Origin: a virus
Virus record (IMG/VR): IMGVR_UViG_3300045988_085915
Span: 1 to 31,151 of that record
Length of the DNA: 31,151 bases
Strand: one strand, 5' to 3'
Shown here: positions 158-31,151 of the stretch, piece after piece
Numbering within the stretch: the first letter of the stretch is position 1
Layout of the letters: every line of letters starts with the position of its first letter
Position numbers and translations under genes: made by a program
The notes under the pieces: generated by a model
The model's input: the letters and a program-made list of their open reading frames with translations, nothing else
What the model was told of the DNA's origin: nothing
The model's database searches: none

Positions 158-1876
158 ATGAAAACTTATTTAAATAATTTAATCAATGAATTACCTACTA
201 ACTGCTTATTTGACAAAGGTAAAGTAGGATGTGGTGGAACTTCAATGGCTTTAGAGTGTGATAAGCCTTATGTTATATGTGTTCCATTTGTAAGTTTAGT
301 TGAGAATAAACTTGCTCAATATCCTAATGAAAGACGTAAAGAGCCTATTTTTGGAGTTTATCAAGGTGTTACTAAGACAGATATTGAAGCTTATATATCT
401 TCAGTTAAATGCCCTAAAATCATTGTTACTTATAATTCTCTTTATAAAGTAATAGAAGCGGTAAATCCTAAAGATTATAGCCTATTAATTGATGAATATC
501 ATATACTATTTAATCAATATAGTCTTAGAAGAGATGCAATTAAAGATGTATTAAAGACATATAGTCTATTTAAAGAATATACATTTATGACTGCAACTCC
601 ATTAGAAGATGAATTTGTTTTAGATGAATTGTCTAAACTGCCATTAGTAAGACAAGAATGGGATGATGTTATTGAGACTAAAGTTCAGACTGTTAAATGC
701 AAGAATGTAGAAGCTTCCACAATTAAGCTTATAAATGGATTTTTAAGTGGGAATGTTGAAGGTAATGCTTATATATTTGTTAACTCTGTTGACTTTATAA
801 AGAATCTTATTTTAAAGGCTAAACTTACAGCAGATAACACAAGAGTAGTATATTCTAAGAATAATAGAACTAAACTGCCAATTCAGAATTCTTCAGTAAA
901 TGATGAACCTAAGAAGATTAATTTGTTGACTTCTACTGTATTTGAAGGTTCTGATATTTATGATGAAAATGGAAGAATTATTGTAGTTAGTGATTCCTCT
1001 AAAGCTCAGACTCTTTTAGATATATCTACTTCAATTCAACAGATTGCTGGTAGAATTAGAAATAGTAAATATTTAAATTGGATTACTCATCTTTATTCAG
1101 CCACAAGATATGCAGAGATAGATTATGATACATTTAAAAATAATACATTAAAGAATATTGAAGAAACAAAGATTGCAGTTGAATCATATAATCAGCTTCC
1201 AGAAGTAGCTCGTAAGAAGATTACAGACTTTACAAGTGACACATATATTCAAATTAATGAGGATTATACCTTTGAATTTGACCCAAATATGGCTAAAGTA
1301 GATATATTCAATTTTAAGGTTGCAAGAGGTTTATACTCTGTAAGAGTTAATCTTACTAATGAATATCTAAAGAATGGCTTTATAAAGGTTGCTGAATGTG
1401 AAGATAAATCTATTAAGATAGACCTTGAAGCTCCTAGTAAGTCATTTCAGGAGCTTATTAAAGATGTAAGAGCTGAATGGGAAACTAAATTTAAAGTTGG
1501 AACTCCTATATTAAATGAAGCTCTAATTAAATATCCTTGGTTAAATGATGCAATTAATAAACTGGGATTTGAAAGAATGGCAACTTTGGGTTATTGCATT
1601 AAAGATATTAAAGAGGAGCTTGTTAAAATATCAGATAAAAATATGCCAAATAAGGTTGCCAAATTACTTACAAGAGATATTCAGAATGGTATGTTCTACA
1701 ATTTAGCTTTATTGAAGAATAAGATTGCTGATGTATATAAGACTTTAGGTATAAAGAAAACTGCAAAGGCAACAGATATTGAACACTATTTTGAAGTTAG
1801 AAAATCAACTAAAACTGAAAAGGATGTTAGAAGCAAAGGATACATTATTATTAGACCAAGATTCATATTTAAATAG
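158..1876 (+). CDS. SF2 helicase-like NTPase (572 aa); the only obvious replication-type gene
   Basis: Uninterrupted ORF ending in TAG. SF2 motifs by eye: GCGGTS (motif I-like, lacks the Lys), LLIDEYH (DExH), MTATP (III), TSTVFEGSDI (V), QQIAGRIRN (VI). All 4 Trp are TGG. Confidence 0.7.
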   Translation: MKTYLNNLINELPTNCLFDKGKVGCGGTSMALECDKPYVICVPFVSLVENKLAQYPNERRKEPIFGVYQGVTKTDIEAYISSVKCPKIIVTYNSLYKVIEAVNPKDYSLLIDEYHILFNQYSLRRDAIKDVLKTYSLFKEYTFMTATPLEDEFVLDELSKLPLVRQEWDDVIETKVQTVKCKNVEASTIKLINGFLSGNVEGNAYIFVNSVDFIKNLILKAKLTADNTRVVYSKNNRTKLPIQNSSVNDEPKKINLLTSTVFEGSDIYDENGRIIVVSDSSKAQTLLDISTSIQQIAGRIRNSKYLNWITHLYSATRYAEIDYDTFKNNTLKNIEETKIAVESYNQLPEVARKKITDFTSDTYIQINEDYTFEFDPNMAKVDIFNFKVARGLYSVRVNLTNEYLKNGFIKVAECEDKSIKIDLEAPSKSFQELIKDVRAEWETKFKVGTPILNEALIKYPWLNDAINKLGFERMATLGYCIKDIKEELVKISDKNMPNKVAKLLTRDIQNGMFYNLALLKNKIADVYKTLGIKKTAKATDIEHYFEVRKSTKTEKDVRSKGYIIIRPRFIFK

Positions 1877-2351: not shown

Positions 2352-2921
2352 TTAAGCGTATTTTCAAATGTATCCTTTAGATGTTTGCTTTAATCCACTA
2401 CATACTCTACTAATGGCTCCTCTATCAGTTCCTACTGCATTAGCCGCTTCAGTACAGCTTTCATATTCCTTAATAAAATTTCCCTCTAAATCATATTGTA
2501 AAACCTTTTTACATCTTTTCTTATTATGAATTTCATTACTAATCTTCCAAGGCAAACTATATAAATGTTTCTTACCTTTATTTGATTCTGATAGTTTCTT
2601 TCTTCATTCTGGAGAAAATTTTATTCCATAGTTGCCACCTTCACCTCCTGGCTTCAAGTTTAAACACATTGGATCTACTTCCCATTTATCTCCTATTAAT
2701 TCATACTCCTTTTTAGATAATTCATCTGAATCATTACAGAATGCAATTATTTCTTTTTTATATGCATTAGGAAATCTTTTATAGTAGTTCTTAATAATTT
2801 TACCAGAACCTTTATATGGATCTTTATATGGGTCTTTTCCTTTATAAATACGCTTACCAATGTAATATTTTCCTCTCAATGAGCCAGCAGTTAAATAAAT
2901 TTTATAACAATAGTAAAACAT
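2352..2921 (-). CDS. GIY-YIG homing endonuclease with NUMOD3-like and C-terminal IENR1/NUMOD1-like HTH (189 aa)
   Basis: N-terminus YCYKIY...GKYYIGKR (GIY..YIG). Two in-frame TGA (2604-2606, 2364-2366) join track ORFs 2604..2921 and 2364..2555. The second gives the typical GYIWKY C-terminal motif. TAA stop. Confidence 0.85.
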
Positions 2922-16359: not shown

Positions 16360-16409
16360 TGTAACCTTTTTACTCATATTTTGTAGTTAATAAGAATAAA
16401 AAAGTTACA
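16360..16409 (+). promoter_or_regulatory. 50-bp inverted-repeat-armed element, copy 2, 53 nt upstream of the - strand protease gene but with its core in + orientation
   Basis: TGTAACCTTTTTACTCATATTTTGTAGTTAATAAGAATAAAAAAGTTACA; 50 nt; lies in the intergenic gap between the tape measure stop (16420) and the protease start (16307). Confidence 0.55.
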
Positions 16410-25288: not shown

Positions 25289-25338
25289 TGTAACTTTTTT
25301 ATATTATCTTAGTACCAAATATGAGTAAAAAGGTTACA
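25289..25338 (-). promoter_or_regulatory. 50-bp inverted-repeat-armed element, copy 3 (core in - orientation), upstream of the tail operon
   Basis: Its reverse complement, TGTAACCTTTTTACTCATATTTGGTACTAAGATAATATAAAAAAGTTACA, aligns with copies 1 and 2 over its whole 50 nt. Confidence 0.6.
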
Positions 25339-26125: not shown

Positions 26126-27409
26126 CTATTTAAATTTAATATTATAATGTCCTTTAGTTGTATTTAATGAGTCATAGGCTAGCATTAATGAAATTACTGT
26201 ATCATCATTAAATCCAGATGGAGCATTATAACTAACATTTCCAGTTTTTGGATTATATGAAGCTTCATATAGTCTTAACTCATTTAAAAGTTTATCATCT
26301 TTTAATAATCCTATCTTTTCATTCTCCAAAGCAGCTTGAAGCTTATTTACAATAGCTGCTTTAGACTTATTAGTAGTTAAAAACTTAACTATCCGTAATT
26401 TAGGATTCCTTTTTACAAGAATATCATAAAACACTGAACCTATTGAGTTTTGTTCAACTTGAACTATCTTTATAAATCCCTGATACTCAGTAAATATATT
26501 TGTCAGTAAATCAACTTGTTCTGTTGGAGTTTTGTCGTTAAAATACTTTATAAAGACCATCTGCCCATTTTCATTTAAAGCTGTAATACAAGTATAGTCT
26601 TTACCAGAACCAGTAGCCCAGTCAACTCCAATATAGAGATTATGATATTCAGGTTTTTTATCAATTATACAGTTAGCTATATTATTAAATAGGCAACCAT
26701 CATCATCTGCAAACTCTCCAAGATATTCAGTTCTAAATTTATTTTTGGAGGTTGTAAGGCGATACATTTCAAGTTTATCCTCACTTAACAGCATAGAAGT
26801 ATCTTCTAATGCTCAATCAAAGGATTGATAATATTTACTAAAATTACCATCAAAGCCTTTTTTAAAGCATTCATAAAAGAATCCTTCTCTAAACCTTGGA
26901 GTACTAATTATAAGTATTGGAGCATTCCATACATCAGCGATAGGTGTTAAAATTTCGTATACTTCATCTGATATATAAGCTGCTTCGTCAATTACTAATA
27001 TTCCACTAACTGTAAATCCTCGTAATGAATCTTTTTGCTCAGCAGATTTAAATAGTATTTCACTCCCATTAGTAAATTCAATCTCAAGCAAAGATTCATT
27101 CTTTTTCTTAATAATATCTGTGCCATCTAATGCCTTTACTAACTCTTTAAATATCTTTCTGGAGTTAGTAAGAGTTGGTTCAACAATACAGCTAATACTT
27201 CCAGGATAGTTAATTGAAAATCGTAATAGTTCATTTTCTGCCATAAAGGATTTACCACATTGTCTCTTTGCTTTTACAGTAAATATTTTTCCAGACCTAT
27301 AAGAGTGCTCTAAAGCAGTATGTACCTTTAATTGATAGATAAATGGGCTATATCCTTTATATATTTTTGTCATTGTTAATTGGATCTCCAAATTTAAACT
27401 GGACTTCAT
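26126..27409 (-). CDS. terL: Terminase large subunit (427 aa; alternative start ATG 27373 gives 415 aa)
   Basis: Walker A-like KRQCGKSF and Walker B-like ILVIDEAAY; nuclease half with GVDWATGSGKDYT and FNDDTV. An in-frame TGA at 26813-26815 joins track ORFs 26813..27409 and 26126..26794. Confidence 0.85.
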
Positions 27410-28142: not shown

Positions 28143-28472
28143 TTAATCAATAAGTTTGTATATAACATCTATCAGCTTAGTAGATGCATCTTTTAATAAT
28201 ATCATAATATCTTTAATAATTGGAGTCATAAATGCTAATAGTGCAATATATCCAACCATTAAAATTGAAAATTGACTTGTAATAAGAATATATATTAATC
28301 CAATTCACCAAGTCATACATAAACTGCAATCTAAAGGTTTTAGTCTTCAATCTTCTTTATAAGGCATACCTTTAAATAGTCTTTTTCAAATACTATGTTT
28401 AAAACTATCCAAAGCCCCAGATAAATCAATTATAAAGACTATTATTACTGCTATTATAAATAATTCTAACAT
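28143..28472 (-). CDS. Small integral membrane protein with a CxxC motif (109 aa)
   Basis: Invisible to the ORF track because of three in-frame TGA. Hydrophobic N-terminus, KPLDCSLCMTW-W(TGA)-IGLIYIL, second TM segment. TAA stop. Confidence 0.5.
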
Positions 28473-28711
28473 AATCTCTCTCTTATTTGTTTAATAAATC
28501 TTTGAATTGTAGTATGACTAATTCCCAATATTTTTCCCACTTCTCTATAACTGTGATATTCAGCATATAATATGATTACTGTCTTATCTGCCTTATTAAG
28601 CTCAAGTCATTTTGGATATATACTTAATAGTCTATCATCCATATTTGTAAACATACTATAGTCTATTTCATACTCAGTAAGTAAATCGTCAATATTAATC
28701 TTCCGTTTCAT
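28466..28711 (-). CDS. Sigma-70 region-4-like HTH protein (81 aa); C-terminal half of a split ECF-like sigma factor
   Basis: LELNKADKTVIILYAEYHSYREVGKILGISHTTIQRFIKQIRERL matches the region 4.2 pattern. One in-frame TGA; TAG stop. Confidence 0.6.
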
Positions 28712-29003
28712 TTAATCAATCCTCCAATTCGTCATTTTGTTGTTCAAGTGGTTCTTTAACAATCTCATAATATTTCTTATAGGTATAGTAATATCTACTT
28801 GTTTTACTAAACCAATAATTCTTAAATAATCTTGTAATCCAAAATTTCAATTCATTTTTGCTATCAAGCTGATTTAATTTTGGATTTGAATACTCTAGTA
28901 TTTCTACAAAAATCATTTGAACACAGTCATCATCTGCACCAAATTTTTGCTTAAGTTCCATAATAAATGGATAGTACTTTTCTACAATTTCGTTATTACT
29001 CAT
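28695..29003 (-). CDS. Sigma-70 region-2-like protein (102 aa); N-terminal half of a split ECF-like sigma factor
   Basis: IVEKYYPFIMELKQKFGADDDCVQMIFVEILEY...LKFWITRLFKNYWFSKTSR follows the ECF region 2.1-2.4 pattern. The TGA at 28716-28718 adds 7 aa before TAA. Confidence 0.55.
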
Positions 29004-29490
29004 ATGTTCACATATATCCTCCTGCTGTTTTTCGCTGCCCTTTAAGAACCTTTACAATATTTCTAGATTGTATATTTAGTTCTCTCTCAGCATCTATTGC
29101 TGAATCCCATCTTTTAATAACTATTCCATTTAGTAATTGCAGTATTGGTTTCTTATGACTATATCCAGCTCGCAGATTATGAGTTCCATAATTATTATTA
29201 TAATTATAAGTACACCATTCTAAATTACTTACATTATTATTTGATTTATTTTCATCCTTATGATTTATACAAGGATAGTTATTCGGATTAGATATAAAAG
29301 TTTCAGCTACTAATCTATGTATATAACACTTCTTTTTCAAATTTTTATTATATAATGTTACTGTAAAGTACCCATTAGTTTTTACTTGAGGTTTTAACCT
29401 CTTTGGAACTGATGCTCTTAAACTTCATATTGAGCCATCAGTTCCAATTTGGTAGTTTTCAAAATTAAGTATTCTTTTATAGGCTATCAT
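28996..29490 (-). CDS. HNH homing endonuclease with NUMOD4 N-terminus and IENR1-like C-terminus (164 aa)
   Basis: FENYQIGTDGSI-W(TGA)-S (NUMOD4), YIHRLVAETF..NHKDENKSNNNVSNLEW (HNH_3), and GGYM-W(TGA 29008-29010)-TYE at the end. Confidence 0.85.
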
Positions 29491-30493: not shown

Positions 30494-30982
30494 ATGAAAG
30501 GGTATATTTATAAAATAACGAATACAATAAATAATAAGTGTTATATTGGTCAAACTAGAACTAATATTAACAAAAGATGAAATAAACATAAGTTTGTAAG
30601 TACAGATCCAAGTAATAAAGCCTATAATTATCCATTATATAATGCTTTTAGAAAATACGGAATAGATAATTTTAAATGAGAAATATTAGAGGAATTAGAT
30701 GATAATTTAGACGATTTAATTATAAAGCTAAATAATCTTGAAATATATTATATATCTAAATATAATTCCCTAAATAATGGATATAATCAAAATAAAGGCG
30801 GAAATATAGTAGTTCAAACTTTAGAAAATAAATATAATGTATCTAAGGGAAAGAGACAATACTTAGGCTCTTTTGATAGATGTTTTGAAATCTACTATAT
30901 GGAACCATCGGCATTAGATTTATATGAATCAGATAAACTACTAAGTTTTAGTGAGTTAGAATTTTGACCAAAAATTTATTAA
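30494..30982 (+). CDS. GIY-YIG homing endonuclease (162 aa)
   Basis: GYIYKITNTINNKCYIGQT (GIY..YIG), NKR-W(TGA)-NKHK, NFK-W(TGA)-EILEE and EF-W(TGA)-PKIY. Missing from the ORF track because of these three TGA. TAA stop. Confidence 0.85.
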
Positions 30983-31017: not shown

Positions 31018-31037
31018 TTGTTGTATATTTGTACTAT
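31018..31037 (+). promoter_or_regulatory. Promoter-like 20-mer TTGTTGTATATTTGTACTAT (+ strand), pointing toward the helicase module across the circular junction
   Basis: Exact inverted copy of 30385-30404; lies 36 nt after the GIY-YIG stop and upstream of the 33-64 hairpin. Confidence 0.45.
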
Positions 31038-31151
31038 CAAACTAAAACTACTTCCATATTGAAAATTGAGCTGGGATTAATTCCCAGTTTAATTTTAACC
31101 TTTACTGTAACTTTTTTACTAATATTTTGTAGTAAGATAAATAAAAAAAGT
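31033..31151. repeat. Second copy of the 119-bp terminal repeat
   Basis: Identical to 1-119. It includes a truncated duplicate of the hairpin and of 50-bp element copy 1, so these are the same locus, not extra copies. Confidence 0.95.

Follow-up and report, generated by a model that had tools for sequence, protein, structure and literature searches.

Two overlapping open reading frames (ORFs) of the IMG/VR virus record IMGVR_UViG_3300045988_085915, here termed ORF1 and ORF2, probably encode two halves, sigma-2 and sigma-4, of a very divergent phage sigma factor resembling those of the extracytoplasmic function (ECF) type. The stretch of DNA analyzed, referred to throughout as the window, comprises positions 1 to 31,151 of this record (31,151 nt). 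A sequence-only reading of the window had proposed an ECF-like sigma factor with regions 2 and 4 on two overlapping ORFs, and this proposal is supported by the Pfam score of ORF2, by the match of an artificial ORF1+ORF2 fusion to the NCBIfam model TIGR02937, and by relatives in which both domains are fused into one protein.

Organization of the gene pair

ORF1 and ORF2 are encoded on the minus strand, and the coordinates, sequences and junction reported by the sequence-only reading, including a 17-nt overlap and the placement of ORF2 in the +1 frame, were all reproduced; ORF2 starts 292 nt past the start of ORF1. The features of the pair are as follows, with protein lengths in amino acids (aa).

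28695..29003, minus strand: ORF1, 102 aa with TGA read as Trp; a putative sigma-2-like half of divergent sequence (regions 2.1-2.4), with an acidic tail at the C-terminus, EPLEQQNDELEDWLNETED
28767..28937, minus strand: conserved core of ORF1, about residues 23-79, DDDCVQMIFVEILEY...ELKFWITRLFKNYWFSKTSRYYYTYKKYY; invariant or nearly invariant alignment columns
28716..28718, minus strand: in-frame TGA of ORF1, a Trp codon and not a stop
28695..28711, minus strand: 17-nt overlap of ORF1 and ORF2, with the ORF2 ATG at 28709-28711 and the ORF1 TAA stop at 28695-28697
28466..28711, minus strand: ORF2, 81 aa; a linker-like N-terminus, then a predicted sigma-4 (region 4.1-4.2) helix-turn-helix (HTH)
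28472..28603, minus strand: predicted sigma-4 HTH, ORF2 residues 37-80, LNKADKTVIILYAEYHSYREVGKILGISHTTIQRFIKQIRERL, delimited by the match boundaries of Sigma70_r4_2, Sigma70_r4 and TIGR02937

The junction between the two ORFs reads GAT TGA TTA AAT G. Under the bacterial code, ORF1 would stop at the TGA at 28716-28718 and ORF2 would be broken by an in-frame TGA of its own, so that ORF2 exists only under code 4, where TGA specifies Trp. As relatives L019-L024 carry TGG in place of the junction TGA, this codon is read as Trp, and the TAA at 28695-28697 is the stop of ORF1, whose last residues are ...EDWLNETED*, which bears out the earlier suggestion that a Trp reading would add WLNETED to ORF1. 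The TGG of these relatives and the code-4 genome together rule out the TGA as the stop codon of ORF1. Neighbouring genes of the window genome commonly overlap, by 7-53 nt, which is in keeping with separate translation of ORF1 and ORF2.

The window phage reads TGA as Trp (code 4). Across the whole window, ORF content amounts to 12,333 aa under code 4 versus 8,719 aa under code 11, and structural genes run uninterrupted for up to 1,118 aa when read with code 4. There are 44 in-frame TGA codons across the genome versus 65 TGG codons, none of the 29 minus-strand genes examined is ended by TGA (all 29 terminate with TAA or TAG), and 11 of 12 variable orthologous codons compared between the window and its relatives are exchanges of TGA and TGG. 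No tRNA genes, suppressors included, were found in the window; as the genome uses code 4 without a suppressor tRNA, the host of the phage probably decodes TGA as Trp natively. The GC content of the window is 30%, and Shine-Dalgarno motifs almost never precede the genes of this phage, whose leaders are A/T-rich.

Sigma factor similarity of ORF1, ORF2 and their fused relatives

The region 4 HTH that the earlier reading had recognized in ORF2 was recovered by profile search, with residues 37-80 scoring 26.4 bits against Pfam Sigma70_r4_2, a marginal pass of its 25.7-bit cut-off. Against Pfam Sigma70_r4 the score was 22.3 bits, under the cut-off of 24.1, and ORF2 aligned to positions 117-161 of the TIGR02937 profile. 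By these matches ORF2 is sigma-4-like. All 108 ORF2 homologues are 89 aa or shorter (mostly 81-89 aa, plus a few shorter fragments), so that none of them is a full-length sigma factor. Group IV (ECF) sigma factors have a sigma-2 domain (regions 2.1-2.4) recognized by Sigma70_r2 or Sigma70_ECF and a sigma-4 domain recognized by Sigma70_r4 or Sigma70_r4_2, the latter recognition holding marginally for ORF2, and carry both domains on one linker-joined polypeptide, whereas here and in most relatives the two domains are in different frames. The sizes of the halves are consistent with the absence of regions 1.1 and 3.

The NCBIfam matches of ORF1 are exclusively to ECF-type sigma models, and are weak and located within the region-2 part of these models. 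Against TIGR02937, ORF1 gave an E-value of 8e-4 and 19 bits, versus a cut-off of 42.9, over profile positions 4-104. This model was matched by 13 of 23 members of the ORF1 family (best E-value 1.8e-5), with the remaining hits likewise to ECF sigma models, and the AlphaFold2 model of ORF1 shows four confident helices within residues 1-65. Homologues of ORF1 are ~90-102 aa long, the exceptions being a few short fragments and a single protein of 157 aa with an N-terminal read-through from a degraded HNH gene, and the wider family consists of stand-alone proteins of ~90-125 aa. The core motif of ORF1 recurs both in this wider family and in the fused relatives. In the sources searched, proteins of the ORF1 family (~100 aa) carry neither a Pfam nor a PHROG annotation and are given no functional name, being called at most "hypothetical protein".

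An artificial fusion of ORF1 and ORF2 aligned to positions 4-161 of the 165 positions of TIGR02937 with an E-value of 1.5e-10 and 41 bits, versus the cut-off of 42.9. When the profile of the ORF1 family was used for a full search with HMMER, it recovered 566 cluster representatives (clusters at 50% identity). Among the best 150 of these, about 130 are no longer than 133 aa, while 19 are fused proteins of 156-245 aa in which the match is N-terminal and the ORF1-like domain is followed by an acidic linker and an ORF2-like C-terminal HTH. Fifteen of the 20 long relatives, namely the 19 fused proteins and one carrying merely an N-terminal extension, match TIGR02937 (best E-value 1.6e-11), and some are labelled sigma24-family proteins by the Joint Genome Institute (JGI). 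The AlphaFold2 model of one natural fused relative, P0311 (pLDDT 76), was compared with the PDB using Foldseek. This revealed almost only sigma factors, mainly of the ECF type, in full-length collinear alignments with probabilities of 0.75-0.98, including Bartonella RpoE, M. tuberculosis sigma-H, sigma-L and sigma-K, E. coli sigma-E, AlgU, SigW, CnrH, and BldN. Against viral predicted structures the matches of P0311 were significant, with E-values down to 1e-5, and included phage proteins annotated as sigma-70 region 2, sigma24 (homologue), and ECF sigma factor. A search of PDB sequences with the fused profile (A2) reached only sigma-4-type HTHs, weakly. As the fused relatives carry both domains and match ECF models and structures, they link ORF1 and ORF2 as parts of one sigma factor.

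Conservation and reversibility of the split layout

Viral contigs were scanned for ORF1, and the 27 loci recovered, 66-100% identical to it, all have the two-frame layout. In total, the arrangement of two ORFs in the +1 relation is present at 34 of 34 close loci, representing 26 haplotypes from independent samples, with an overlap of 17 or 29 nt. The comparison of gene structure in related phages that the sequence-only reading had proposed yielded, among these 34 loci, none with a single uninterrupted ORF. Both frames are under purifying selection, with a median ratio of nonsynonymous to synonymous substitution rates (dN/dS) over the 26 haplotypes of 0.167 for ORF1 and 0.156 for ORF2. Independent gene callers predict the pair of 102 aa and 81 aa, and for P0034, an ORF2 sequence 99% identical to that of the window, the index of the contig collection lists 873 blocks, mostly from contigs of 20-50 kb.

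The same layout extends to diverged lineages (L025-27, L028-30, L037, L040/41, and L043/44, the latter from Alistipes metagenome-assembled genomes (MAGs)), in which overlaps of 8-59 nt are always in the +1 relation, with different junction sequences and under both genetic codes. Relatives with 28-55% identity to ORF1 still show a sigma-2-like ORF overlapped by an HTH ORF in the +1 frame. The overlaps in L028-L030 are 38, 50, and 59 nt; in L037, a standard-code phage, ORF1 ends at a true TGA stop and the overlap is 50 nt. L040 and L041, integrative elements that use the standard code, carry DnaB and an integrase of the Bacteroidota type, and their junction, ATGAATGA, is a classic stop/start overlap that also occurs in two Alistipes MAGs. 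The Alistipes elements with close relatives of the sigma family use the standard code. GTDB genomes gave no match when scanned with the ORF1 family, and 3 loci when scanned with the Alistipes-type relative.

Split and fused states interconvert between close relatives. The fused gene of L039 (P0153) lies in the same synteny as the split pair of L037 and is followed by the same small membrane-protein gene, and in L042, a close relative of L040, the two ORFs are fused via an 8-nt tandem duplication (GATGAATG followed directly by GATGAATG) that restores the frame and keeps the Met of ORF2 as an internal residue. Such interconversion in close relatives argues that the parts work together in either state. 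The split is thus old, widespread, and reversible.

Predicted function of the pair

We propose that a divergent phage sigma factor of the ECF type (group IV-like) is made here as two polypeptides, with ORF1 and ORF2 as its halves. By analogy with structures of ECF holoenzymes, ORF1 (about 12 kDa) would act as the sigma-2 module, binding the beta-prime clamp helices and recognizing and melting the -10 element, and ORF2 (about 9.6 kDa) as the sigma-4 module, binding the beta flap and reading the -35 element with its HTH. The 17-nt overlap would place ribosomes finishing ORF1 at the start of ORF2, and this coupling would keep the amounts of the two proteins roughly equal; these proteins would then assemble on the core of the host RNA polymerase. 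The acidic tail of ORF1 and the N-terminal 35 residues of ORF2 could serve as two linker stumps in place of the covalent linker between sigma-2 and sigma-4. The pair lies near the head of a long operon on the minus strand, just upstream of the genes for the terminase (26126-27409) and structural proteins, a position usual for phage late-gene activators, and may redirect host RNA polymerase toward middle or late promoters of the phage; timing and targets are likewise predictions.

Several observations weigh against this reading. The sigma-2 assignment of ORF1, which draws on NCBIfam hits below threshold and on the fused relatives, is its weaker link: ORF1 has no Pfam match, nor is one precomputed for any homologue; a Foldseek search of the PDB with the ORF1 model alone gave nothing significant, the best sigma match having an E-value of about 10; and when sequence profiles of the ORF1 family (A1, A3) were run against the PDB, the matches were all spurious (Cdc13, internalin). 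The region 2 pattern that the earlier reading saw in ORF1 is thus favoured by the sub-threshold ECF-model matches over region 2 and by the fused relatives; in profile searches of the kind it had suggested as a check, ORF2 was recovered above its Pfam cut-off and ORF1 only by NCBIfam models below theirs. The PDB matches of the P0311 model have weak E-values (at least 0.04) and low TM-scores, the latter because inter-domain orientation differs. No promoter motif could be assigned to the pair, and production of two polypeptides is deduced from sequence. In E. coli, three canonical ECF sigma factors became non-functional when cut at the linker (PMC7090010), and given such inactivity, non-covalent function of the window pair would need a compensating feature.

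Some of these points could also be accommodated if ORF1 and ORF2 descend from a sigma factor but no longer form one, with ORF2 acting as an HTH activator or repressor, and ORF1 either as a modulator that binds RNA polymerase or as a gp55-like factor with sigma-2 only that functions independently of ORF2. ORF2 scores higher against generic HTH families (HTH_50, E-value 6e-8, and HTH_23) than against Sigma70_r4_2, ORF1 is too divergent for Pfam Sigma70_r2, and T4 gp55, itself a sigma-2-only protein, can direct promoter recognition (PMC2988020 and PMC7892883). Two independent functions would however leave unexplained the strict adjacency and overlap of the genes in every lineage, as well as the repeated appearance of single-chain fusions in the same synteny and the interconversion of split and fused forms in close relatives. 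We therefore regard this alternative as unlikely, and a single sigma factor in two parts as the probable identity of the pair.

Translation as one or two products

The simplest reading of the junction is that ORF1 and ORF2 are two translationally coupled polypeptides. We infer separate translation because the ATG of ORF2 is conserved, lying inside the overlap in every lineage, because a stop codon in the ORF2 frame stands upstream of it (in the window, a TAA directly before the ATG), and because no frameshift signals were found. No slippery site is conserved, as the sense codons before the ORF1 stop differ by lineage (GAT, TAT, GAA, ATA), and RNA structure at the junction does not go beyond that of shuffled controls (z=0.02). 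With no conserved codon, an ATG always present and no such structure, the hallmarks of a programmed +1 frameshift of the prfB kind are missing. A GGAGG motif before the ORF2 ATG was considered as a ribosome-binding site and rejected, since the phage lacks Shine-Dalgarno usage and the motif is absent from L025 and L027. Among the interpretations offered by the sequence-only reading (a genuine two-subunit factor, a frameshift-dependent fusion, or a sequencing indel), production of two polypeptides is thus the best supported.

Programmed +1 ribosomal frameshifting within the 17-nt overlap would instead yield a single-chain sigma factor of ~175 aa, and any separate ORF2 product would be irrelevant or minor. 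Such a mechanism would account for the +1 frame of every lineage examined, where overlaps of 8, 17, 29, 38, 50, and 59 nt are all 2 mod 3, and would deliver the single chain that is functional, as the fused relatives show, while sparing the phage the cut at the linker that inactivates canonical ECF sigma factors (PMC7090010). The constant frame is, however, equally explained by one ancient split followed by in-frame indels, and a single ancient split is its simplest origin. The shift would also need to occur without a conserved slippery or re-pairing codon or a stable RNA structure, would be restricted in the window to 17 nt by the TAA just before the ORF2 ATG, and would give no reason for every lineage to keep an ATG that it does not need. 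A frameshift-dependent fusion is accordingly improbable, more so than a pair that has ceased to be one sigma factor, although shifting at a low level is conceivable. That the split reflects an indel from assembly or sequencing, or the decay of a formerly intact sigma gene into a pseudogene, is scarcely credible despite a few ORF1 database entries (P0025-P0027) with internal frameshifts resembling assembly errors, as different samples and assemblers gave the same layout for all 26 haplotypes at the 34 loci, dN/dS is ~0.16 in both frames, diverged lineages keep a stop and an ATG at junctions of varying sequence, and P0034 recurs in hundreds of blocks.

Returning to the two-polypeptide sigma factor, we consider evenly poised the broader proposal that a large ECF-like family of phages and mobile elements consists predominantly of obligately split, two-gene sigma factors, which would be translationally coupled and assemble non-covalently on host RNA polymerase, and in which single-chain forms, such as the one arising by the 8-nt duplication, would be secondary. 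This family spans hundreds of clusters at 50% identity and occurs in gut phages of either code and in Alistipes integrative elements.

Genomic setting and neighbouring genes

Adjacent genes and an intergenic repeat element of the window are as follows.

28143..28472, minus strand: conserved downstream neighbour of the pair, a predicted multi-pass membrane protein of 109 aa that contains a conserved CxxC motif, overlapping the end of ORF2 by 7 nt
28996..29490, minus strand: HNH homing-endonuclease gene directly upstream of the pair, overlapping the start of ORF1 by 8 nt, with blastn matches to HNH endonucleases
74-123, 16360-16409, and 25289-25338, intergenic: palindromic element of 50 nt, TGTAAC(T-rich)...(A-rich)GTTACA (TGTAAC-N38-GTTACA)

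In each of L028, L029, L037, and L039 the gene for the 109-aa membrane protein comes after the sigma-4 ORF or after the fused gene; it has no Pfam or PHROG family. Its product may be a functional partner of the sigma pair, and is a candidate anti-sigma factor or regulator, or a candidate holin-like protein.

The upstream HNH gene, which is I-HmuI_NUMOD-like/HNH_3 in relatives and absent from L031 and L033, is a mobile insertion outside the sigma system. A homing endonuclease, intron, or intein was rejected as the origin of the split, as the HNH genes lie beside the pair and not within it. Homing-endonuclease insertions flanking the pair vary between strains. In L004, L006-L008, L013-L014, L019, and L023-L024 an HNH-like gene stands directly after ORF2, and the C-terminus of ORF2 is ...HTTIARCISNIRNKICGRI and not ...HTTIQRFIKQIRERLC, which suggests co-conversion of the end of the recognition helix in these strains. 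Mobile endonuclease genes (HNH, NUMOD, GIY-YIG, T5orf172) are many for a 31-kb genome (window 2352-2921, 28996-29490, and 30494-30982), and their presence varies between otherwise near-identical genomes (L031-L036).

Three copies of TGTAAC-N38-GTTACA were found versus 0.01 expected by chance, and these are kept at homologous sites in relatives. The sequence-only reading had named conserved upstream elements as likely targets of the sigma factor, which could not be confirmed: the asymmetric core inside the palindrome points the same way as the downstream gene at two sites and the opposite way at the third, and since its orientation fits at only two of the three, the palindromes cannot be assigned to the window sigma factor. 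In addition, a terminator-like hairpin comes after the copy at 25289-25338. TGTAAC resembles an ECF -35 element; the palindrome may act as a promoter or operator, fold into an RNA hairpin, or serve as a signal for replication or packaging.

The window has a 120-nt direct terminal repeat (1-120 = 31032-31151) and is, because of this repeat, a complete phage genome of ~31.0 kb (about 31,031 bp), which is circularly permuted or terminally redundant. Two longer contigs, L010 (IMGVR_UViG_3300045988_175865, 148.6 kb) and L032 (an ENA scaffold of 198 kb), contain the ~31-kb phage; these 149-198 kb contigs could be prophage/host junctions or concatemer assemblies, a distinction that could identify the host. 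The sole large plus-strand gene of the window (158-1876, 572 aa) has no Pfam or PHROG match and is presumably early or replication-related. PHROG and Pfam searches of neighbouring genes gave nothing useful, leaving replication and regulatory genes without annotation, and in a blastn search of the 5-kb region against annotated phages only the HNH endonuclease matched, with no annotated close relative.

Comparison with known systems

The closest cellular parallel is SigO-RsoA (YvrI-YvrHa) of B. subtilis, in which, as proposed here, sigma activity needs two polypeptides from neighbouring genes. MacLellan et al. in 2009 are said to have found that RsoA gives only a region-2.3-like segment and that SigO holds region 4 plus other parts. 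As RsoA supplies only this segment, the break point of SigO-RsoA differs from that of the window pair, which is cut cleanly in the linker between sigma-2 and sigma-4 and whose genes overlap. SigO-RsoA is also cellular and not phage-encoded. The paper reclassifying the ECF sigma factors cites SigO-RsoA as ECF-like with sigma-2 and sigma-4 functions on separate proteins (PMC7826278). In Pfam and NCBIfam scans of ORF1 and ORF2, in which no direct comparison was made, neither SigO/RsoA nor gp55/gp33 families were among the matches.

Among phages, T4 gp55/gp33, which act with the sliding clamp gp45, similarly have sigma-2-like and sigma-4-like roles on separate small proteins. Of these, gp55 binds the beta-prime coiled coil and reads a -10-like late promoter and gp33 binds the beta flap, and published work refers to gp55/gp33 as a split sigma factor (PMC13627669, PMC2988020, PMC7892883). 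MtvS1/MtvS2 are presented as split sigma factors by hypothesis only (PMC13627669). T4 gp33 is not a sigma-4 HTH and reads no -35 element, and activation requires the DNA-loaded clamp, whereas ORF2 of the window keeps a recognizable sigma-4 HTH by profile match, and the two window halves, unlike gp55 and gp33, are both homologous to a single-chain ECF-like protein of relatives.

Canonical ECF sigma factors, including those of phages (Cronobacter phage GAP52, Agrobacterium phage Atu_ph04), have the same order of sigma-2, acidic or disordered linker, and sigma-4, with a total of about 170-190 aa, and the fused relatives of the window family match ECF models and structures. The canonical factors are, however, made as one polypeptide, unlike the window pair, and their sigma-2 is recognizable by Pfam, whereas the N-domain of the window family is not. 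The gene transfer agent activator GafA, likened here by description, is one gene in Rhodobacterales and split gafA genes in Hyphomicrobiales (PMC9638019). Like the window system, GafA belongs to a phage-like element, as a sigma-like or RNA polymerase-recruiting activator, and occurs as a single multi-domain gene or as two genes depending on the lineage, but it belongs to a different protein family, interacts with the omega subunit, and has no sigma-2/sigma-4 split. We found no phage ECF-like sigma factor encoded as separate sigma-2 and sigma-4 genes in the literature, where coverage was incomplete and the absence is one of evidence only.

Sigma factors are normally single chains whose linker threads the active-site cleft and the RNA exit channel of RNA polymerase. 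A natural family cut at this linker, with fused and split forms among close relatives, would offer matched pairs for studying the role of the linker in core binding, promoter opening, and promoter escape. If the reading is true, these phages hold a natural solution where canonical ECF sigma factors split in the laboratory failed, and the role of the sigma finger in the RNA exit path would become directly testable; naturally split sigma factors would also be ready-made two-input transcriptional AND gates. The family points to redirection of host transcription by a very abundant ~31-kb gut phage of code 4, and as the ORF1 family is without annotation, sigma factors would have been overlooked in gut phage genomes. 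Set beside the systems above, the finding extends the known kind of split sigma factor from one locus to a large unannotated family.

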